Below, piece after piece: positions 5,971-58,900 of a stretch of DNA of 64,000 nt; the first letter of the stretch is position 1; the number at the start of each line of letters is the position of its first letter. Source of the stretch: a virus; IMG/VR virus record IMGVR_UViG_3300046690_000339, positions 15,900-79,899 of that record; one strand, written 5' to 3'. A program made the translations under genes and the position numbers. The notes under the pieces were generated by a model. That model saw only the letters and a program-made list of their open reading frames with translations. It had not been told where the DNA came from and did not search any database.

Positions 5971-7490
5971 TAGTCCAGCTTGATCTCTTGTATCTCAGCC
6001 TGCGCCGCCCCGACCTGCAAAATATGGCTCAACAATCCATCGCCCTTCACATCAAGCTCGATCTCATCGCCAAGATACTTGATCAGGTCTAAAAATTCAT
6101 GCGCCTGCGATATCATCCAAGTATGACAATGAAACAACCGCCCACCCGGATCGACTATCACTGGCAACACTAACTCTGCGTCGTTTTCTTTCTGCTCATA
6201 GGCGTGGTGAACATATTGCAAATCATAAGCCGGCTGGCCGGCCAGCTTGCCATTTCTGTACTGTCGAACTTCGGCTTTATATTCCGGCGACTCGTATTCT
6301 TGCAGGCACGAATCGCACCCGTATAGAATAAACTTCCTATAGCCAAGCATGCGCATTAAAGGAATCGCCCTGAGCAATACCGTCGAGCCACCGGGAATCG
6401 ACCACCAACGGAGCGGGTAGGCTTCCTGCAATATGTCCTGAATCATTTCCGCCGTGGTGTGCCAGATGAAGGTCCGCTCCTTCGGCAGATGCTCAAACAC
6501 CGAAGGGTCGCACTGCGAGGAAATGAGATATTTGCAGCCATCCACAATAGGGTCGACAAACCGCGCATTAAACGCCCGCGCATCAACGACGATCTGCGCC
6601 GAAGGGGTGATGCCGTGACGCACTGCCCAGTTATATGCTCCGTTGAGCGTGAGCAATTTCACCCCGTCGGCGCGATTCTTTTTGATTTCGTCTTCAAACG
6701 CCGCCATGGATGGGCCGCCGCCCAAAATCATGCACTCAAAATCATTGCCCTCGTGAGGCTGGCATGGCGTCCAGCCCTGCGCGCAATTGTGCCGGACATT
6801 GGCGCGTATCTGTTCCTGCTCGGTATTCAAGACGCCATGCTCGACGATCGCTTTGCCGTCTTGCCATGCGGTGACATAGAACTGGGCCGACCCATTGTCC
6901 TGTTGTGACCAATGGATAACACAGTCGCGCGCCTCAAACTGTTCCTTCCACCAGTCGAAGGGATGTACCGACAGGTGCAGGGTTTCACCGATCATGCCGC
7001 CGCAGGAATCATCAAACATAGCGATTGAAAACCAGACGTGCTGCGCGGCTTTTAGAATATTGTCAAGCACGACGCCGACCTTGTCGGGCGGGATATGTTC
7101 CATGACATCCGTGCAGAAACCAAACTCGGCTGTTACCGGAATAGTTTTTTCTAAGTCCGCTTTGATGAAATACAATTTCGGGTCTGGACCATCGACTATT
7201 TCTTTAACGGCTGGATCAAGGCAATTCCGCACAAAGTCGATCATCGTCACTTGCAAACCAGCCTGCGCGAGCTTGGCGCCGCCGCGGCCCGTACCGCAAC
7301 CGAAGTCGATCACCTTCGCCCCTTGGGCCGGCTTGGCGGTCAACATGAAGATGGTGGCAAAAAACTCGCCCGGCGCCATTGCGCGATATTCCGCCCGCTC
7401 CCACATGCGGCCATACTTCTGCGCCTCGGGATTGCCCGGCGTGACCTTCACTTCTGGCGCGTAGCCTTGCCACAGTTCGTTGGTCGTCAT
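5970..7490 (-). CDS. Class I SAM methyltransferase fused to an MptE/DUF115 (Maf-like) domain
   Basis: VIDFGCGTG and CTDVMEHIP, then ILGGGPSM, LNGAY, GGSTV and LYGCDS motifs; likely start ATG 7490 after GAGGA. Confidence 0.75.
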   Translation of the reverse strand: MTTNELWQGYAPEVKVTPGNPEAQKYGRMWERAEYRAMAPGEFFATIFMLTAKPAQGAKVIDFGCGTGRGGAKLAQAGLQVTMIDFVRNCLDPAVKEIVDGPDPKLYFIKADLEKTIPVTAEFGFCTDVMEHIPPDKVGVVLDNILKAAQHVWFSIAMFDDSCGGMIGETLHLSVHPFDWWKEQFEARDCVIHWSQQDNGSAQFYVTAWQDGKAIVEHGVLNTEQEQIRANVRHNCAQGWTPCQPHEGNDFECMILGGGPSMAAFEDEIKKNRADGVKLLTLNGAYNWAVRHGITPSAQIVVDARAFNARFVDPIVDGCKYLISSQCDPSVFEHLPKERTFIWHTTAEMIQDILQEAYPLRWWSIPGGSTVLLRAIPLMRMLGYRKFILYGCDSCLQEYESPEYKAEVRQYRNGKLAGQPAYDLQYVHHAYEQKENDAELVLPVIVDPGGRLFHCHTWMISQAHEFLDLIKYLGDEIELDVKGDGLLSHILQVGAAQAEIQEIKLD

Positions 7491-12448: not shown

Positions 12449-12853
12449 TCAGCTTGCGCTGACTACTCTCACATTGGTGCCGTCACAGTAAAGAATCTTA
12501 GTATCGCCATTCGCCAGCGCGATCCCGGTGCCGGCTGCGGTTTTGACGGTCGCATTAAAACCGCCCGTTGCTTCATGTTTGAAGATATAAAGCTTCACGT
12601 TATCCGGCACGATGATATTTCGCGCGCCGGTCATGGCACCGGATAGCACGAAGAAAACATTGCGCAGCGCCTTGTAAAGATTGGAGGCGGTATCCTGATC
12701 GCTGCCGGTTGTCAGATCGATATCGGCCACCGTGACGGTGATCAGGCCGAGCCCGCTGATCGCCGCTATCGCCTGCGCCAGCCCGGTGTTCGCCTGAATG
12801 TAATTCAGATTCGTGTTTTGGCTGACTTCCTGAGTATCTAAATTGTTCGCCAT
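12449..12853 (-). CDS. Tail fibre-like protein
   Basis: LSGAMTGARNIIVP...ATGGFNATVKTAAGTG...LYCDGTNV. Confidence 0.65.
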   Translation of the reverse strand: MANNLDTQEVSQNTNLNYIQANTGLAQAIAAISGLGLITVTVADIDLTTGSDQDTASNLYKALRNVFFVLSGAMTGARNIIVPDNVKLYIFKHEATGGFNATVKTAAGTGIALANGDTKILYCDGTNVRVVSAS

Positions 12854-15877: not shown

Positions 15878-18226
15878 TTAAGCCATTGCCCCTAACAGCG
15901 GCGCATCGTCATAACAACGCCGATTTCCCAGCTCACAATACTTCCGCTCCAAGTCCATCCCGATGCCGCGCCGGTTCATCTTGTCAGCGACTAGCGCCGT
16001 CGTCCCTGAACCGCTGAACGGGTCAAGAATGATCGCGCCGGGCTTCGATACCAGCTTGATGAGATACTCGATCAGGTCTTGAGGCTTGACGGTCGGATGA
16101 TTGTTGCCCTCGCCACGGTCGGCCTTGTCGGCCTTGGCGGTATAGTGAAATCTATTTGCTGAGTCCGCTTCCCCACGAACCGTATTGAATAGCGTGATGT
16201 TGAATGTGGCAGGCTCTACAGACCCATTTGATTTCCAGCGGCTTATTGTAATCGTCGTGATGTCGGTCCGCCTTTGGGTTGCCGCAATTTTCACAAGGCA
16301 ACCGTTCGGGAAAGGCTTTTCTTGCTGCAGCTCGGGCGAGACATTTTTTTCTAAACTCAGAATTGCTGTGATAAGCGACTCGCAAAGTTTTCTTAACTCT
16401 CTCGGCGTTGCGCTCATAAAATGGTGCGTTGAATCGCTTAATCCAAGTCGTCCTTGGCTGGCCAAAATTGCTGCATGACTTAGAGCAGAAGCGACGTGAT
16501 CGCTTGACAGGAAAGAAAGGTCGTCGGCAGTATTCGCAAGGTCTTGATTCCATGCTATTATTATAGCCTTGGCGTTGCAAAAAAGCGACTCAATTTCATT
16601 CAAAGAAACAGTTTTAAAAAACCGTGACGCGCCGCCGGTGTCGCCATACCAGTCAATCGGGTCTGCCCCTCTACTCTCTGCACCATAAACATTGCCTTGA
16701 TGACCAGACGTTGTTTTGGCGCGACTAACTGTTTTACCGCTGGTCAATTCCCCGCTCTGCTCATCGAGCAGCGCCGCCGCTTCTTCGTCGAGGATTAGGT
16801 TGGCGGGCCAACGACCGACGTTGCTGTGATGATTCGCTTTTGTCGGATCGTAGTTATCGCCAAGGCCGGTTTGAGACGGTCGCCCATTCGCGCCGCATTT
16901 ATAATCGCCATCGAGGTTGATTCGACACCCGTCGATATTCAGCGCCCCGGTACCGTATCGCTGCACGTTTTCGGCTACAGTGCCGATGATCGGCTTGCGG
17001 GCGACGATGATCGGCTGGAACTTAGGCCGTAATCCCAGCCCTATTTCTTCCGGGTGTAAGCGCTGCGCCTCGTCGATAGCATCGCCTAGAACAGAAAGCT
17101 CTTGGATGGCGTTGATGCTCGTGACGACGGCGTTCAAATATCTTGCCGCAGGCAAGGCATTTAACTGTAACCCAGGCGCTTGCAACTCTGCCTTTATGAT
17201 GATGCTTGGAGTGAGCGCCGATAAGCATAACTTCAAGATTTTTAGGTCGATTGTCGGATTTGTTTTCGATTCCCTCTCGCTTGTGGTGGACGTGCTCATT
17301 TCGTCGAAGTGGGCGACCAAGGCGCTGCGCCATGACGACACGATGCTCAAGCTCGTATTTATCGCCGACACGCACAGCGACGTATCCGTCTTTGCGCGTA
17401 AATCGTCCCAAATATTCTTTGGCTGCTCGACATCCCATCGAGCAAAAGCGAGCGCCGCGTCGTGCTCTGCTTGGCTTAACTTGAAATGTTGTTCCGCAAT
17501 TCTCGCAGGTAATATCGACCATAGTTGCGCCTCCAATTTCAATAGGTTCGCAACTATTATACTCCGTTCCGTTGATTCTGGAAATGGTTTTTGTGCTACT
17601 ATGATATTTTCCCATGCGGGTTTAAGCGCCGTGCCCCAGCCTTGCCACTCTTTTGCGGCGTCGGTAGATGGTGCAGTGAGTTTTTCTATTCCATAACCAA
17701 AGATAGCAGTATTGTTTCGATTAGCTTCAGCTGCGGCCATCGTGACGCCGTTTCGTTTTGCCGCCTGAACATCTCCCCTAACTTTTTCTCCAACAATCTC
17801 CCGCTCCGCTCCTGCCGCCTTATCAATCGCCTTACTCACGTCCAACGATTTCGGAAATCCGCTGCCGTAGAGCCACATGATGCAATCACGAATCTCAAAG
17901 CCTGCGTCCTCGATTGCGCAGGTCAGCCGGTGAAACGTCCGCGTGCCGCCGAAGGCGAGCAGGTAAGCGCCGGGCTTGAGCACGCGGAGGGCTTCGAGCC
18001 AGTATTCAACTCCCGGCACAACGGCGTCCCATTTTTGGCCCATGAATCCGCCGCCAGTTGTTACACGCGAGCGACCTGCAGGAGATTTCAGATTCAACGA
18101 AGCCGCGCCGCTTCCGCCTTTTTTGTTTTGAGTAAGTCCGTAAGGCGGATCGGTGATGATGGCGTCCACCGAATTATCCTTCAGCGGTACTTGTCTTGCG
18201 TCGGCGTTGAGAATTTTCCAGCTCAT
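15878..18226 (-). CDS. Beta-class N6A/N4C DNA methyltransferase with two in-frame insertions
   Basis: TDPPY, WLYGSGFPKS, GWGTALKPAWE, GRWPAN, HPTVKP and DPFSGSGTT motifs. Confidence 0.9.
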   Translation of the reverse strand: MSWKILNADARQVPLKDNSVDAIITDPPYGLTQNKKGGSGAASLNLKSPAGRSRVTTGGGFMGQKWDAVVPGVEYWLEALRVLKPGAYLLAFGGTRTFHRLTCAIEDAGFEIRDCIMWLYGSGFPKSLDVSKAIDKAAGAEREIVGEKVRGDVQAAKRNGVTMAAAEANRNNTAIFGYGIEKLTAPSTDAAKEWQGWGTALKPAWENIIVAQKPFPESTERSIIVANLLKLEAQLWSILPARIAEQHFKLSQAEHDAALAFARWDVEQPKNIWDDLRAKTDTSLCVSAINTSLSIVSSWRSALVAHFDEMSTSTTSERESKTNPTIDLKILKLCLSALTPSIIIKAELQAPGLQLNALPAARYLNAVVTSINAIQELSVLGDAIDEAQRLHPEEIGLGLRPKFQPIIVARKPIIGTVAENVQRYGTGALNIDGCRINLDGDYKCGANGRPSQTGLGDNYDPTKANHHSNVGRWPANLILDEEAAALLDEQSGELTSGKTVSRAKTTSGHQGNVYGAESRGADPIDWYGDTGGASRFFKTVSLNEIESLFCNAKAIIIAWNQDLANTADDLSFLSSDHVASALSHAAILASQGRLGLSDSTHHFMSATPRELRKLCESLITAILSLEKNVSPELQQEKPFPNGCLVKIAATQRRTDITTITISRWKSNGSVEPATFNITLFNTVRGEADSANRFHYTAKADKADRGEGNNHPTVKPQDLIEYLIKLVSKPGAIILDPFSGSGTTALVADKMNRRGIGMDLERKYCELGNRRCYDDAPLLGAMA
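16152..16553 (-). CDS. Nested HNH-like endonuclease inside MTase insertion 2 (alternative frame)
   Basis: PCEYC...FCSKSC and CENCG...HHDDYNKPLEIKWVCRACH; TATAAT 6 nt upstream of ATG 16553. Confidence 0.8.
   Translation of the reverse strand: MESRPCEYCRRPFFPVKRSRRFCSKSCSNFGQPRTTWIKRFNAPFYERNAERVKKTLRVAYHSNSEFRKKCLARAAARKAFPERLPCENCGNPKADRHHDDYNKPLEIKWVCRACHIQHHAIQYGSWGSGLSK
17022..17522 (-). CDS. Nested HNH endonuclease inside MTase insertion 1 (alternative frame)
   Basis: EHRVVMAQRLGRPL...VHH...DNRPKNLEV with flanking zinc ribbons; GGAGG SD at 17530-17534 before ATG 17522. Confidence 0.85.
   Translation of the reverse strand: MVDITCENCGTTFQVKPSRARRGARFCSMGCRAAKEYLGRFTRKDGYVAVRVGDKYELEHRVVMAQRLGRPLRRNEHVHHKREGIENKSDNRPKNLEVMLIGAHSKHHHKGRVASAWVTVKCLACGKIFERRRHEHQRHPRAFCSRRCYRRGAALTPGRNRAGITA
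17521..17584 (-). promoter_or_regulatory. Internal sigma70-like promoter plus SD-occluding hairpin for the nested HNH
   Basis: TTTCCA-17-TATAAT (-10 at 17556-17561); 9-bp stem ATAGTTGCG/CGCAACTAT at 17521-17557. Confidence 0.7.
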
Positions 18227-44176: not shown

Positions 44177-45091
44177 CTAATCGAGCAAACTCAGCGCCTG
44201 TTGGGTAGCCTTGGCCCGGTTGAGAGCTTCGCGGATACGGCGCAGATGCGCCATGATGATGTCCAGGCGTTGGGCCCTGAGTTCGGTATCGCCGTCGAGG
44301 ACCGACGACAGCACGGCGACCTCGTCGCTCTTGAAGCTCCGGATGACAAGCGACTCCACGCGCGCCATCAATTCGTCATACTTCGAGGTGATCTCGCGCC
44401 GGTGCTTTTGCTCGTCAGTGTTGCCGGTGTCAAAGAGCTGTGTCTGCTGCTCGTTCTGCGCCATGGCGTCGACCAGCAGCCACCAATGATTGAGATTCAT
44501 CGAGCCGGCCTTCTTGAAAGCGAGCATCTGGTTCTGGTGATTGATCTTCGTCAGGTGCAGCGCCTGGGCCGGGCTAATGGCGCCGTGCACCACGCCCTCG
44601 CGCATGGCGGCGCTCAGCTTCTGGAGCTTTAACCTGTCGCGCACGAAGGTCCAGGGTTTGCCGATGATCTTGGCGACCTCGGCCTCGTCGATGCCACCGC
44701 GGGTTTTCTGGAGCTCGGCCAGGGCGTCGCTCTCCTCGATCACGTTTAAATCCTTGCGATGCAAATTCTCGATGATAGATAAGGTCCGGATGCGCAACGG
44801 GTCGCCATCGTCATTTACGAGCGACTTGATGGTGCCCAGGCCGGCCAGTAGATGAGCCCGCCAGCGCCGCTCGCCCGCGACAATCATCCATCGCGCGCCG
44901 TTGGGCCGGATCGTGATCGGCTGCATCAGCCCGTCTTTCTTGATCGACTCGGCGAGCTCCTCGAGGTCGCGGTGCGTGAATTGCCGTCGTGGTTGACCTG
45001 GGTCCGCGTCGATATCGGCGACGGGAATTTCTATGACGCTGGTTTTCATCCGGCGCATTCTATGATCTTCGATCTCAATCACCTTGCTCAT
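44177..45091 (-). CDS. ParB/Spo0J-like protein
   Basis: QPRRQF, GLMQPI, AGERRWRA and ENLHRKDL motifs. Confidence 0.9.
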   Translation of the reverse strand: MSKVIEIEDHRMRRMKTSVIEIPVADIDADPGQPRRQFTHRDLEELAESIKKDGLMQPITIRPNGARWMIVAGERRWRAHLLAGLGTIKSLVNDDGDPLRIRTLSIIENLHRKDLNVIEESDALAELQKTRGGIDEAEVAKIIGKPWTFVRDRLKLQKLSAAMREGVVHGAISPAQALHLTKINHQNQMLAFKKAGSMNLNHWWLLVDAMAQNEQQTQLFDTGNTDEQKHRREITSKYDELMARVESLVIRSFKSDEVAVLSSVLDGDTELRAQRLDIIMAHLRRIREALNRAKATQQALSLLD

Positions 45092-54180: not shown

Positions 54181-54612
54181 TTATTTCGCCAGCAGCGATT
54201 GAAGCTGCGAGTAGGGGCACTCCATCACGTCGCAGCCGTCCGTGGACAGCTCCTCGGCGATCTTGAACACACCATGGTTCTTCATGTGAAAGATGACGGC
54301 CTGGGAGTTGGGCGGAATGTGGCGCGTCGTCTTCTTGATGTGCAGCGGCTTGCCGTCGCCGTCGATCTCGACGCTCGACTCCTCGCAGTCATAGCCCTTG
54401 ATGAGCTTCTGCAGGCTGTCTTTGGCGAGCGTCGCCCAATAGTTCCGACCGTCCTCGACGGCGGCGAAGAACTCTTTGTGCTGCTGCCACTCCTTGAACA
54501 GCTCGGCCGACAGACCCATCTCCTTGGCGATCTCCTCGTCGCTCAATCCCCAGCGGGCAATCCAGCGGGCGAGCTGCGGGTGCAAGCTGCGGCGGTACTT
54601 GGTTTCTTTCAT
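54181..54612 (-). CDS. HTH protein of terminase-small-subunit-like type
   Basis: GLSDEEIAKEMG...W...EF..A...G; PPNSQAVIFHMKN; start MKETK. Confidence 0.6.
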   Translation of the reverse strand: MKETKYRRSLHPQLARWIARWGLSDEEIAKEMGLSAELFKEWQQHKEFFAAVEDGRNYWATLAKDSLQKLIKGYDCEESSVEIDGDGKPLHIKKTTRHIPPNSQAVIFHMKNHGVFKIAEELSTDGCDVMECPYSQLQSLLAK

Positions 54613-54668
54613 TTTCGCTCTACACGTTTCGCCACCTTCGATACGCAAAGGAAAGTGACACTGCCAAG

Positions 54669-55022
54669 CTATTGAGATTGTTGAATAGACCTCAAAAGCC
54701 TGGTGGTTATATGTAATTTTCGCAAGTATTCGCCACGCCTCATTACGCTCGAATGGCTAGGCAGTGGATTTTTCAAAAATTGCCTCGCCAGCGCTCTGCT
54801 CCAGATAGGACTCGGACCAGAGCAGCAGACACTTCCATGCCGCGTCTTTTGCCTCGGGATTATCGGCCTCGCGTTTTCTTCGAGGTGATCGAGCATATCA
54901 ATCGCTACCACTGCGAGCTTTACTCCGATCAAACCAGTGATCTGGCCGAGTGCCTCGTTTGCGGCGTCCAGCCCCTCAAATGAATCTGGCTTCAGCTGTT
55001 CACTATTTTTATTCGTGGCCAT
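54669..55022 (-). pseudogene. Probable ParB-like partner gene broken near 54868
   Basis: AVVAIDML..LEENAR followed by apparently unrelated sequence. Confidence 0.35.
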
Positions 55023-55777
55023 CGATAGTCCGTAGTCTTTGCCGCCTTGCGCCTGTTGCATGTTTTGCAGAGCGGCTGAATGTTGCCGATTAAATTTGGA
55101 CCGTGCTTTACGAGCGGAATGACGTGATCCGGTTCAAGCCTTATTTCCGGCTCTCGCCGTCCACAGCATAGGCATCTGTGGTCATATAGTGCTTTAAGAG
55201 CCGTCCATTCTTCTGGCGTATATCCTTCGGCGGTTTGTCGGCGGCGGCGAGCGTTAAGGGCGGCCATCCAATCTGGGTTGGCGCGGCGCCACGCCCTTTG
55301 CGTTGCCTGGTATCTGGCCTTCCTGTCCGGATTGTTGACGACGTTTAGGCGTCTCCACCTTCCATTGCTCGCGATTATGATCGCCTTATTTTCGTTGTAA
55401 TAACCACGGATTTGCTCAAGAGCATGTTGCCGATTTTGGCTATAACGGCGCCTGCGCTCGATGCTCTTACAGTCTTTGCAATAAGGAAACTTGCCATCGT
55501 CCGCCGATTTGTTTTGATGAAACTCGCTGAATGGTTTTTCGAGTCGACATTTTAAACAGATCTTGCCGCCGTTTTTTGTTAGCTTTCGAATAGCCCGAGA
55601 TGTAATTCTTGGAATCGGATGCAATGCGCGATGGCGCTCCATGCTCCTCTTTTTTGTGCAGTCCTTGCAGCTATTACCGGAGCCTGCGTAAAACTCCCTG
55701 ACGGAATCTTTTTTCTTGCCGCATTGGATACAGATCCTTCTCTTTAGCTTTTTGTTTGGCCGTGGTTTTTTTTCCAA
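54992..55777 (-). CDS. HNH endonuclease with CxxC repeats
   Basis: CLCCG...DHVIPL..HG.N...NIQPLCKTCN. Confidence 0.85.
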   Translation of the reverse strand: MEKKPRPNKKLKRRICIQCGKKKDSVREFYAGSGNSCKDCTKKRSMERHRALHPIPRITSRAIRKLTKNGGKICLKCRLEKPFSEFHQNKSADDGKFPYCKDCKSIERRRRYSQNRQHALEQIRGYYNENKAIIIASNGRWRRLNVVNNPDRKARYQATQRAWRRANPDWMAALNARRRRQTAEGYTPEEWTALKALYDHRCLCCGRREPEIRLEPDHVIPLVKHGPNLIGNIQPLCKTCNRRKAAKTTDYRWPRIKIVNS

Positions 55778-57042
55778 AATTCAAACCCTTCTTCCAGACT
55801 CCAGCGGCCCGGCGCCGCGATGTAGTTGAGCATGCCTTCTTTGCGCAAATGCAGTTTGAACAAACCGCGGTATTTCTGCGACACCGGCTTGTTGGTAAAG
55901 GCTGTCGTGCCGATCGATTCGATCCTGCGGTTTTGCTGCATCTCGCAGAGCGCGCGGGCTTCCGTCGACAGGCATGCGGCGAGGACCAGCTTAGAGAGCC
56001 GCTTGTAAATAGACGGACGGATGGCGAGATCCGTCATCATATATACATCGCAGAACGACCCATAGGCCGGTGGCGGCGTGAAGCTGAACGCCCCGGCGAC
56101 CTCGCCGACCAGAACGGCGAAGTTCTGTTGCGCCGCCGCCGGCTTGATCGTCGGCGCGAGGTATTGAGAACGGAGACCGTTCATCTGTGGTGACGTGATC
56201 GGAGCAATCTTCAGCGCGCCGCTGGCTATCGCGGTCAGCCGGTTGACCAGGACGGGCTCGATCTTTTGGACCGGTCCCACCACTCGCGCGGCGGCATTGC
56301 CCCCAGAATAGACGTAGACCGGCCTGGACAGCGCGCTCGTCTGCATCTTGCACCTCAGGTGCCCCTCGAGCTCTGGCACCACGCAGTCGCGCATTGTGAG
56401 CCATTCACGCTTGGTTTTCATCGTCTCGATGAGTTCGATATAGCGGTTATCGTCGAACATCGCGTAACTCGGCTGGTCCCAGGCAAAGATCTCGTCGACC
56501 TTTTTATAAAGCCGTTCGTATCCTTTATTGTACGTCGGTGGAAAACACGCGAAGACGCAGTCTTCCGGCGCCATTGCGCAGAAATCGACAACATCACCGG
56601 CGAAAAAGGATTTGAGCACGATGCCGTCAAGCGCGGCTGTGACCTTCTCGATAGTCTTCTGCATGAGATCAGGCCATTGCTTCTGATAGGCTTTGATCAT
56701 TCTGAGATGATAAACCTCTTGGCGGTCCGCCGACTGGAACATTTCCATGCAGAGCAGCAGCGTCGCGATCGTGCCGACGCCGCCGGTCAAATACTGTGTC
56801 AGCCACTCCCAATCCGGTCGCTGCACCCTGACCTCGATGTCGTTGCCGGCCAGGTGCGAGCCCAGCACGCAGCTGTACAGCGAGACGTCGTTGCCGTGGA
56901 GCTCGGAGGGAGCGAACTGGGAGACGATCCTCTCCACCGTGGCGTTGCCGGTGCAGCCGACATAGACGTTGGCGCCCTTCCAGCGATGCGCGATCTCGGC
57001 GACCACGGCGCGCAGGTTTTCGTTTATGGCTCCGATGAACAT
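55744..57042 (-). CDS. DNA-modification fusion: adenine-MTase-like fold plus C-terminal Mom-like GNAT domain
   Basis: N-terminus: VGCTGN, GNDVS and FPPTY (variant of DPPY). C-terminus: LKIAPI-helix-FAVLVG..AGAFSF, TDLAI, KRLSKLV, TTAF and KYRG in GNAT/Mom order. Recognised by eye. Confidence 0.6.
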   Translation of the reverse strand: MFIGAINENLRAVVAEIAHRWKGANVYVGCTGNATVERIVSQFAPSELHGNDVSLYSCVLGSHLAGNDIEVRVQRPDWEWLTQYLTGGVGTIATLLLCMEMFQSADRQEVYHLRMIKAYQKQWPDLMQKTIEKVTAALDGIVLKSFFAGDVVDFCAMAPEDCVFACFPPTYNKGYERLYKKVDEIFAWDQPSYAMFDDNRYIELIETMKTKREWLTMRDCVVPELEGHLRCKMQTSALSRPVYVYSGGNAAARVVGPVQKIEPVLVNRLTAIASGALKIAPITSPQMNGLRSQYLAPTIKPAAAQQNFAVLVGEVAGAFSFTPPPAYGSFCDVYMMTDLAIRPSIYKRLSKLVLAACLSTEARALCEMQQNRRIESIGTTAFTNKPVSQKYRGLFKLHLRKEGMLNYIAAPGRWSLEEGFEFWKKNHGQTKS

Positions 57043-57043
57043 A

Positions 57044-57241
57044 ATTTCTCAGCTTGGGTCAGGTCGTTCCTTTTAGGCTTCCTGGCCGATTTAGCTCGAC
57101 GCTTTGATTCGCGGGCTGCGCGCTTCCCGTCTGGCAGCTTCGGCCACTCGCCAGCGAAGTTCCCCGTCTATCCGTGAGTGTTCGCATCAGGAGTTTCACC
57201 CTTGCGGCCTATTCGTGCCAACCTAACCCAAGCTCAGAAAT
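57044..57241 (-). promoter_or_regulatory. Structured leader closed by a 21-bp stem
   Basis: 57221-57241 pairs with 57044-57064 (19 Watson-Crick, 1 G-U, 1 mismatch); the stem ends 1 nt before the ATG. Confidence 0.7.
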
Positions 57242-57242
57242 C

Positions 57243-57318
57243 TGGAGCGCTGCGGTCGGTGCTTCCCCGCCCTTTCCCGGCTGGTGGCCGGGCGTGTCAA
57301 TGGTTTCACTTGCAGCGC
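57243..57318 (-). ncRNA. Non-canonical tRNA-Gly-like RNA (anticodon ACC, encoded CCA)
   Basis: GCGCTGC AA GTG AAACCATTGA CAC G CCCGG CCACCAG CCGGG AAAG GGCGG GGAAGCA CCGACC GCAGCGC T CCA; 76 nt cloverleaf. Confidence 0.8.
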
Positions 57319-57638
57319 ATATCATGGCTATCTTCTTGGTCCACAGGGACTGAATATACTCCTTGAACCGCTTTTTGGACTCGCGACGAAATGGGCAGAG
57401 AAACCGGATTTAAAAGTCGGAACTCTGACCGGCCCGTTGAAACTATTTTCTTAGTCTCCGCCTCTTTGGCTGCAATCCACGTCTGCAAGGCTTCCTCGCG
57501 GATGCGCCAGACTTTTTTACGACGACCTGCACGGAGAATGATTCCCGGTAGTTGGCCGCTTTTAAGCATTGTCGTGACGGTCCAGCGGCTTAATCCCAGG
57601 ATGGATCCAGCTTCCGTAATTGAAAGTAGCTTCAACAT
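57306..57638 (-). CDS. Excisionase-like HTH protein
   Basis: LLSITEAGSILGLSRWTV..ML.SG.LP...WRI. Confidence 0.75.
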   Translation of the reverse strand: MLKLLSITEAGSILGLSRWTVTTMLKSGQLPGIILRAGRRKKVWRIREEALQTWIAAKEAETKKIVSTGRSEFRLLNPVSLPISSRVQKAVQGVYSVPVDQEDSHDMRCK

Positions 57639-57649
57639 CGGTGTAGCTC

Positions 57650-58900
57650 CTACGTAATTCCGAAATTTGCCGGCGGTGGCGGACATTCGCACAAGCCTCC
57701 GGGGTTAGCGCTATAAAGCGCGCACAATTTACGGACGGCCGTCGGCCAGTTAGGGAATCTGCAAATAGGCGTGAGCCATTTCAACATCTGCTGTATTTGC
57801 AGCGCTTTCGATTTCGCATCCCATTGGGTTTGAAGCTGACTTATCGTGAAATTGAAAAACCAAATCGCAAGACACAGTTCGTCATAACTGAACGGCGCAT
57901 CATTGATTCTAGGCCATATCGTTTCGCCGAACGCGACTATTTTTTGTTGTCCATGGGGCATTTTTGATATCGACTGTTCTCGGCGTTTCTCTTCGCGTTC
58001 GACTTGGCGAGCTCGATACAACTCCTGCACCAAGATTGGTAATCTCGCCGGGTTTCTGGCGAGTTCTTCTTGATGCCGAATAACAACTGGAAAAACGTCT
58101 TGTTGGATCTGTGCGCGTTCGGCTTTTTTCGTTAGATCATATTTTTTCGCGTATGATGGCGGACACCACGGCAAGACAAGCCGCAGGTTTGGAAGCGTCG
58201 CATATTCTGTCGCAGTGGGCTCGCCGAAAGCGCCTATCGCTAAGGATTCAACTAGTAAATCCCAGATGGGTCCCTTTCGTTTGTTGATAAGGCGAGCGAT
58301 ATTACTTCGCATGCGTGCATTTGTAATGTAACTTAGGACCAAATCGGCGTTCGGCAGCGTGGCGAGCGCTCCTTTTGGTTTCCGGTCAACTTTTTTATCT
58401 TCTTCATGGTGCTCATCGAGATTTTCCTCTTTGTTATCCGTCGATTCTTCTGCTTTCTGTGGTTCATCTACGGGCACTCCCGTCTTCTCAACGCTGAGAA
58501 GACGTGCCTCAATTTCGTCTTGCCAAATAAGTCGGAGGGATCTCCTGTCGGTTTCCTCTAACACTCGGCGCGTAATTTCGGCATGTTGCCCCATATTTAT
58601 TAATGCTGCTCGGTCATCTTTGTTGAAATAGTCAAGATCGTTTTCAACAAGCCATAGACCAAATTCGACATTTGATCTAAATTCCTGGCGTGCTCGGAAC
58701 AATTCTTTAGCCAGCGCCAGCGTTGCTTTGGCCCATTCGACGGTTGCCTCCCGCCAACCATCAATCACTTCGCGCAGACAGTCCGCGCGCGCAGTCTTCG
58801 GTACCATCCTAATCACGTTATTTGTTTCCACGGTCTTTCTCCTAGTGATATAATTCTTCTCACGTCTACGCTCTCCGTGAAGTGGAGAGCGTAGGGTCAA
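57650..58900 (-). CDS. Hypothetical protein (DUF3102-like N-terminus)
   Basis: L..AR.......FG.WL motif; long ORF. Confidence 0.5.
   Translation of the reverse strand: MTLRSPLHGERRREKNYITRRKTVETNNVIRMVPKTARADCLREVIDGWREATVEWAKATLALAKELFRARQEFRSNVEFGLWLVENDLDYFNKDDRAALINMGQHAEITRRVLEETDRRSLRLIWQDEIEARLLSVEKTGVPVDEPQKAEESTDNKEENLDEHHEEDKKVDRKPKGALATLPNADLVLSYITNARMRSNIARLINKRKGPIWDLLVESLAIGAFGEPTATEYATLPNLRLVLPWCPPSYAKKYDLTKKAERAQIQQDVFPVVIRHQEELARNPARLPILVQELYRARQVEREEKRREQSISKMPHGQQKIVAFGETIWPRINDAPFSYDELCLAIWFFNFTISQLQTQWDAKSKALQIQQMLKWLTPICRFPNWPTAVRKLCALYSANPGGLCECPPPPANFGIT

Follow-up and report, generated by a model that had tools for sequence, protein, structure and literature searches.

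A non-canonical phage tRNA-Gly beside a Dam-like/GNAT fusion gene: a candidate dedicated glycyl donor for DNA modification

In 2026 Mom of phage Mu was shown to use Gly-tRNAGly as the donor of a glycine that it attaches to N6 of deoxyadenosine (dA) in double-stranded DNA (Silva et al., Nat Commun, PMC13219725), so that a report mentioned in an earlier note on the DNA considered here proves to be true. Mom accepts all three Escherichia coli tRNAGly isoacceptors, has R111, S124 and R151 as essential residues and bears a helix-turn-helix (HTH)-like insertion at about residues 175-209 (PMC13219725). In staphylococci, non-proteogenic tRNAGly that bind elongation factor Tu (EF-Tu) weakly and have UGC in place of UUC in the T loop are reserved for the Fem transferases (PMC7826273). 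The bacterial glycine identity set consists of U73, G1:C72, C2:G71, G3:C70, C35 and C36 (PMC9976931; PMC10464925), and glycyl-tRNA synthetase (GlyRS) requires an L-shaped tRNA (PMC10464925). Here we describe a tRNA-Gly-like RNA of 76 nucleotides (nt) that lies next to the gene of a two-domain enzyme, P0001, in which a Dam-like domain is fused to a GNAT-fold domain. The DNA analysed, hereafter the window, is a stretch of 64,000 nt (positions 15,900 to 79,899) from the IMG/VR virus record IMGVR_UViG_3300046690_000339, a complete record of a soil phage of 79.9 kb, and the RNA is internal to it, between two genes.

The comparisons made below suggest that the RNA is probably a dedicated glycyl donor for Mom-like adenine modification of DNA by the fusion enzyme. 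Within the literature library searched, no paper was found that describes the family of PF22555 plus PF22559 proteins or its function, and none that connects a phage tRNA-Gly with Mom or with PF22559 GNAT enzymes. The central features of the locus are these.

57243..57318 (-): non-canonical tRNA-Gly, from the sequence read, a match to covariance model R2 (see below) and a 76-column alignment
57043..57242 (-): 200-nt leader between RNA and gene, from its fold
55744..57042 (-): DAM-like/GNAT fusion gene P0001, 432 amino acids, by PF22555 and PF22559
56248..57039 (-): N-terminal Dam-like domain, residues 2-265, by PF22555 and Foldseek
56530..56544 (-): equivalent of methyltransferase motif IV, F167-P-P-T-Y171 in place of DPPY, by homologue alignment
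55762..56214 (-): C-terminal GNAT-fold domain, residues 277-427, by PF22559 and domain model

Read directly, 57318..57243(-) gives a 76-nt cloverleaf with anticodon ACC and an encoded CCA, in agreement with all the features listed in the earlier note; the one refinement is that the D-stem holds three standard pairs rather than four. The acceptor stem (GCGCUGC/GCAGCGC) has 7 base pairs (bp) and leads into A8 and A9, with no U8. The D-arm, GUG-A / AACCAUUG / A-CAC, has 3 bp and an A.A pair, and its loop, AACCAUUG, is without G18G19. Position 26 is G, the anticodon stem (CCCGG/CCGGG) has 5 bp and the anticodon loop, CCACCAG, has C33 instead of U33. The variable region is AAAG, and the T-arm, GGCGG / GGAAGCA / CCG-A-CC, combines 5 bp with a bulged A63 and a loop without TTC; U73 and the encoded CCA complete the 3' end. 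The molecule has the cloverleaf of an elongator-type tRNA (7-bp acceptor stem, 5-bp anticodon stem, 7-nt loop, T-arm) and the full set of GlyRS identity positions, G1:C72, C2:G71, G3:C70, U73, C35 and C36; it does not keep the conserved elongator positions U8, G18G19, U33, T54-Psi55-C56 and A58. In its minimum-energy fold (-33.4 kcal/mol, z -2.4) the three arms of acceptor, anticodon and T are all present, and 4/200 shuffles reach as good an energy, so that thermodynamic support alone is modest.

Standard tRNA finders miss the RNA, as the earlier note had expected. ARAGORN reported 0 tRNA genes both in the 64-kb window and in the whole 79.9-kb genome, and with relaxed thresholds it made 116 spurious calls, the element at 57243-57318 still being missed. 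An Rfam scan at E<=10 produced no match to the tRNA family (RF00005), only a chance match to gntR-DTE. The covariance model R2 was made, with a hand-set cloverleaf, from 70 unique upstream tRNA-Gly genes lying beside homologous genes, the window's RNA being excluded from the training set. When it was scored over the whole window with filters off, a single strong match emerged, of 46.9 bits (E 3e-9) over model positions 1-74 and with precisely the coordinates 57243-57318(-), the second-best match in the 64 kb having 11.9 bits. We consider it nearly certain that this is a genuine RNA from a conserved family of non-canonical tRNA-Gly. The public runs listed for the stretch are soil and rhizosphere DNA runs, with no RNA run among them; the RNA is unchanged in contigs from four of these soil/rhizosphere runs, a result that is uninformative for 76 nt at about 1% divergence.

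The conservation of individual positions was counted over 107 unique gene-linked RNAs, as follows.

G1:C72: 107/107
C2:G71: 107/107
G3:C70: 104/107
U73: 105/105
C35-C36: 107/107
U33: 55/107
U8: 62/107
GG in the D-loop: 67/107
TTC in the T-loop: 71/107
TGC in the T-loop: 18/107
Position 34: U in 57, A in 26, C in 23, G in 1

The invariant or near-invariant positions are exactly those of the published bacterial glycine identity set, and the earlier statement that the window's RNA carries that set holds at every position and is borne out in its 107 relatives. Acceptor pairs 4-7 and every anticodon-stem pair, meanwhile, covary freely in the gene-linked RNAs; 97.7-98.3% of cells are paired in the family alignments, and 0/500 shuffles are as good. 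The canonical tRNA-Gly of three Streptomyces genomes that also carry a linked RNA keep U8, GG, U33 and TTCGAWT. With the identity set kept and the decoding positions relaxed, the pattern in these sequences agrees with a selection that favours charging by GlyRS, whereas selection for use in translation is relaxed or even negative. The chromosome of Streptomyces kronopolitis also encodes (L183:1501-1573), 74 nt ahead of a canonical tRNA-Gly(GCC), an unusual tRNA-Gly(UCC) whose T-stem is weak and whose T-loop is of the UGCAAU type; this tRNA-Gly(UCC) may be a cell-wall (non-proteogenic) isoacceptor.

The association of such RNAs with the enzyme was assessed in 160 loci encoding homologues, drawn from IMG/VR and from GTDB genomes. 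A query of IMG/VR with the single protein found no related loci; these were retrieved by an alignment query. ARAGORN made 89 tRNA-Gly calls in the 160 loci, two of them with ambiguous four-base anticodons, and the only calls of other types were two tRNA-Arg. R2 matched within 3 kb of the gene in 117/160 loci, and the covarying cloverleaf that the earlier note proposed to look for beside homologues is thus found, in 104 cases upstream on the same strand. The loci divide as follows.

Upstream, same strand: R2 match in 104 loci, median gap 72 nt
Downstream, same strand: R2 match in 11 loci
Upstream, opposite strand: R2 match in 2 loci
At least 400 nt of upstream flank: no R2 match in 37 loci
Upstream flank too short to judge: 6 loci

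A FastTree tree of 141 proteins shows the presence of the RNA to be patchy, with at least 19 changes, the window grouping weakly with carriers. Some individual arrangements deserve mention. At L046:149-222(-) and L098:2880-2951(-) the tRNA-Gly lies on the opposite strand, 49 nt upstream of the gene, and two tandem copies of a private tRNA-Gly precede the gene at L040:1478-1626, L058:2761-2924, L069:2812-2970 and L070:2805-2970. Gordonia phage Soos has an RNA of this kind (L162:2321-2394, about 12467-12540 of the record; R2 50.8 bits) 55 nt upstream of the homologue gp26, not annotated in GenBank, while in Mycobacterium phage Jeon an annotated tRNA-Gly(tcc) overlaps the called start of gp68. 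Members of the PF22555/PF22559 family are borne by phages and prophages of soil and gut as well as by those of Streptomyces, Micromonospora and mycobacteria; cultured carriers include Jeon and relatives, with Taptic, and the Gordonia phages Soos and Clawz.

A more specific connection came from a motif search of IMG/VR with the D-arm motif of the window's RNA, AAGTGAAACCANNGACACG, which found 38 stretches, 35 of them R2 matches. All 35 of these RNAs share the T-stem GGCGG/CCG-A-CC and its bulged A with the window, and L203 and L231 have the exact T-loop of the window's RNA as well. The latter shows every defining mark of the sub-family, namely the D-arm AAGUGAAACCANNGACACG, the T-stem just given, a length of 76 nt and an encoded CCA. 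As many as 32 of the 35 occupy the very 3' end of a Mom gene (PF25680 at 1e-42 to 1e-56); two (L206, L228) accompany a Dam-like/GNAT gene and one is at a contig start. In A7, a gap-free alignment of 76 columns comprising the window's RNA and 16 relatives, 97.6% of cells are paired, 9/20 pairs covary and the bulged A63 is invariant. Between the Mom-linked RNA of L231 and that of the window there are three fully compensatory anticodon-stem pairs and two single-base differences. The presence of a near-identical RNA on the ends of Mom genes argues that the RNA most likely gives glycine to phage DNA and not to ribosomes. We are somewhat inclined to go further and to see in it a portable cofactor, a tRNA-Gly which GlyRS can charge and the ribosome cannot use, moving between Mom and the sequence-unrelated Dam-like/GNAT fusion. 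Were this true, phages would widely employ a dedicated RNA for the tRNA-dependent glycylation of adenine in DNA.

The Mom open reading frames (ORFs) remain open through the whole of the embedded tRNA-Gly, the tRNA sequence forming their last ~25-30 codons (L231:7781-8464, L204:2160-2843, L213:432-1259(-), L211:570-1406 and some 28 further IMG/VR loci); excision of the tRNA would therefore deprive the mom mRNA of its stop codon. A ParB_N gene stands directly upstream of the Mom-plus-tRNA unit at L204:1631-2188 and L213:1256-1894(-). Two genes upstream of the unit in L231 is a gene of the GHMP-kinase family (6161-7207), which may point to further tailoring chemistry. In Mu, no such RNA adjoins mom.

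P0001 itself matches PF22555 at 1e-77 (261 bits) and PF22559 at 1e-40 (139 bits), the Pfam cut-off being 27, and phrog_7858 at 3e-86; NCBIfam has no model for it. A large protein collection contains 254 homologues at E<=0.001, with the two-domain architecture in 120/120 of those listed, and some of them are named 'putative antirestriction adenine methyltransferase' in NCBI/UniRef. Identity to 39 aligned homologues ranges from 41 to 62%, and the closest homologues include P0002 (61%) and P0003. A profile search of PDB sequences with alignment A1 gave only chance matches to antibodies. The AlphaFold2 models are confident, with a predicted local distance difference test score of 90 when the entire protein is modelled and of 90.4 when the C-terminal domain is modelled separately.

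The model of the N-terminal domain matches E. coli Dam (4rtj, 4rtr, 2g1p) with a Foldseek probability of 1.00, other methyltransferases being matched too, and hhalign of the whole P0001 profile against E. coli Dam shows no significant similarity; the sole local match, itself not significant, aligns D181-P-P of Dam with F167-P-P. In 40 homologues P168, P169, T170 and Y171 are invariant and F167 is at least 90% conserved, so the family does not show the methyltransferase motif IV, (D/N/S)-P-P-(Y/F/W). Since the motif reads FPPTY and not DPPY across the family, methyl transfer by the Dam-like domain is unlikely, and with it the second step that the earlier note had envisaged for this domain. A role for this domain in DNA binding and base flipping may reasonably be inferred. 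For the C-terminal domain, the top match by Foldseek among 350,542 PDB chains is Mu Mom (8bv8_B, E 1.2e-4), which also comes first by VIA-align among 48,161 representatives (Z 11.3, root-mean-square deviation 2.8 A over 131 residues). The GNAT domain has 162 residues and the Mom profile 202, so the HTH-like insertion of Mom may be missing. The fusion enzyme may differ from Mu's in its adenine adduct or in the logic of its target sites.

Natural variants differ from the window at 20 sites, of which 19/20 are in the GNAT half and 0 in the RNA or leader. The spacing of most variant sites is consistent with third codon positions, and on this pattern the fusion gene appears to be under purifying selection. 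In the variants at 55847-56231 and 56099, seen in two soil/rhizosphere runs, the GNAT-coding half has 19/20 of the substitutions and a 3-nt insertion, the Dam-like half, leader and RNA being nearly unchanged; the cluster may be a recombination tract or may reflect faster evolution of the GNAT domain. A 531-nt joint found in two runs was regarded as spurious, having only 21 letters on one side.

The neighbouring genes are listed here.

57306..57692 (-): HTH_17 (excisionase-like) gene, PF12728 at 8e-10, phrog_66
54992..55777 (-): HNH endonuclease, directly downstream of the fusion gene, PF01844 at 3e-10, phrog_1035
54181..54648 (-): small terminase subunit, phrog_309 at 1e-18

With the HNH endonuclease and the small terminase subunit downstream, the module stands at the head of the packaging genes. 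The 5' end of the RNA overlaps the last 13 nt of the HTH_17 gene, and its 3' end lies 200 nt ahead of the ATG at 57042, on the same strand as the enzyme gene. No promoter- or terminator-like site divides the RNA from the HTH gene upstream or from the enzyme gene downstream. The leader forms a long-range stem of ~23 bp, from 1 nt past the CCA to just before the AUG; the region 57030-57330(-) folds at -121.9 kcal/mol (z -4.4, 0/100 shuffles as good) with the cloverleaf kept. This predicted stem could mask the start site or act as a processing site. No Mom gene is found in the genome (PF25680, E<=1), which leaves the fusion as the only candidate partner of the RNA. An attachment-site origin was rejected, since the element lies between two genes in the interior of a complete phage record, with no integrase domain among the ORFs scanned beside the RNA.

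These results may be drawn together in the following scheme. The HTH gene, RNA, leader and fusion gene would form one late transcription unit immediately before the HNH and terminase genes, and the RNA would be cut from the transcript with its CCA already present. Host GlyRS would then charge it, as is proposed because U73, G1:C72, C2:G71, G3:C70, C35 and C36 are intact. EF-Tu and the ribosome would be poorly served by an RNA that has a bulge in its T-stem and has lost the T-loop as well as U8, G18G19 and U33, and for this reason glycine would stay available to the enzyme. The disabled Dam-like domain, with its FPPTY, would select the target adenine and flip it out of double-stranded DNA, and the GNAT domain would move glycine from A76 to N6 of the adenine. 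By analogy with Mom, glycyl-dA might rearrange to N6-carbamoylmethyl-dA or a related adduct, which would protect the phage DNA from restriction.

Several observations weigh against the private glycyl donor. The RNA is absent from within 3 kb of 37 loci that have enough flank, including many of the closest protein relatives of P0001, and is therefore not obligatory. Generic GNATs reach Z 10.7 against the C-terminal domain, less than one Z unit behind Mom, so that Mom's structural lead is within noise. Moreover, P0001 has no PF25680 match at E<=0.1, its GNAT domain not belonging to the Mom family by sequence, and hhalign of the GNAT profile with Mu Mom yields a non-significant probability of 0.6%. 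The T-arm of the window's RNA is the most deviant seen and, given that GlyRS needs an L-shape, charging could be poor. Finally, the only ParB_N gene in the window (ORF 44177..45091, match ~44759-45040) is ~10.7 kb away from the enzyme gene. What had been called a Mom-like C-terminal domain is hence Mom-like in having the GNAT fold, with Mom as its top structural match, a place it all but shares with generic GNATs, and not in sequence. The private-donor interpretation of the earlier note nevertheless keeps its core, which is well supported by comparison of the RNAs and their gene neighbours, while its second step is unlikely.

Many phages carry tRNA genes, and one alternative is an ordinary tRNA supplementing the translation of glycine codons, its GNAT neighbour being incidental. 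About half of the family does keep U33 and two thirds keep TTC, and the tRNA-Gly(tcc) beside the homologous gene of Jeon is annotated as a plain tRNA. Yet the window's RNA is without U8, G18G19, U33 and the T-loop; it is the sole tRNA-like gene in 79.9 kb; its A34 is very unusual for a bacterial tRNA-Gly, the common isoacceptor GCC being found in 1/107; and its ACC does not match the phage's main glycine codon, GGC (378, vs 139 for GGU). In many phyla, moreover, the tRNAs that accompany the two different GNAT enzymes are of the Gly type only, and we judge an ordinary tRNA highly improbable. A decaying pseudogene or attachment-site remnant, with the enzyme drawing on host Gly-tRNA or acyl-CoA, is less credible still. 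The aberrant T-arm and the failure of ARAGORN and Rfam to call the RNA would suit it, as would the close protein relatives that have no linked tRNA and the lack of one in Mu Mom. On the other side stand a 76-nt design with an invariant bulged A in 35 contigs, compensatory changes in acceptor and anticodon stems, and a position inside a complete phage genome, between two genes, with no integrase among the ORFs scanned beside the RNA; the covariation largely refutes this reading.

The chief competitor, although itself unlikely, holds that the RNA is a tRNA-shaped processing or control element with no glycine role, RNase P and RNase Z cuts and the leader stem timing translation of the modifier. 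The overlap of the RNA with the end of the upstream ORF, its place in the last ~25-30 codons of Mom in the Mom loci, the strong long-range stem from CCA to AUG and the absence of a promoter or terminator between the genes would all be accommodated. A tRNA shape alone, however, leaves unexplained why six GlyRS identity positions and an NCC anticodon are invariant whereas the rest of the acceptor and anticodon stems varies freely. A dual role, in processing and in carrying glycine, is possible. Host tRNAs that have been cleaved can be replaced by phage tRNAs, and the RNA might be a decoy or spare against host weapons aimed at tRNA-Gly, such as anticodon nucleases or the TacT-type GNAT toxins that acetylate Gly-tRNAGly. 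TacT recognises U73 and G71 of tRNA-Gly (PMC9976931), both invariant in the gene-linked RNAs. Such a function would nevertheless not account for so close an association with an enzyme of DNA type (Dam-like domain, Mom) or for the place beside the packaging genes, and the features that a translation-competent spare needs are lost; we rate it no higher than the ordinary tRNA.

If the RNA does act as a private glycyl donor, it would be without precedent both as a non-proteinogenic tRNA encoded by a virus and as a tRNA dedicated to DNA chemistry, and the large, unstudied PF22555/PF22559 family would gain a testable function. It would also follow that such RNAs systematically escape tRNA finders, and some annotations of phage tRNA-Gly as translation-supplementing would probably be wrong. 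The enzymes and RNA could serve as tools for site-directed aminoacylation of DNA. Since cultured carriers exist, the question is open to direct test.

Among the closest known systems, Mom of phage Mu (PF25680, PDB 8BV8) is a phage enzyme with a GNAT fold, as is the C-terminal domain here, and Mom homologues in 32 IMG/VR contigs carry essentially the window's RNA. Mu Mom differs in being without a Dam-like domain, to which the window's enzyme is fused, and in having no adjoining tRNA, any host isoacceptor being used. The staphylococcal non-proteogenic tRNAGly, which GlyRS charges and which are poor substrates for EF-Tu and the ribosome, serve FmhB, FemA and FemB, which are likewise GNAT-fold aminoacyl-transferases (PMC7826273). 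Like the window's RNA they are extra tRNA-Gly paralogues with deviant D and T arms, and their UGC T-loop recurs in 18/107 of the gene-linked RNAs and in many of the Mom-linked sub-family. They are, however, chromosomal and feed peptidoglycan synthesis, whereas the window's RNA is virus-borne and beside a DNA-type enzyme; the latter also departs further from the canon, with C33, A34, a bulged T-stem and no TNC triplet. Evasion of EF-Tu, shown for the staphylococcal tRNAs, is predicted for the window's RNA.

Among proteins, P0001 is a clear member of the PF22555 plus PF22559 group (phrog_7858), with the same two domains and the same length. The family name 'antirestriction adenine methyltransferase' predicts methylation, which the FPPTY motif makes doubtful. 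The N-terminal domain has the Rossmann-type fold of E. coli Dam and the alpha-class N6-adenine methyltransferases, and its motifs follow one another as in Dam, the Gly-rich one at about residue 30 and PP-x-Y at about residue 170. Across the P0001 family, however, the Asp of Dam motif IV (DPPY) is replaced by Phe, and a Thr is inserted before the Tyr.

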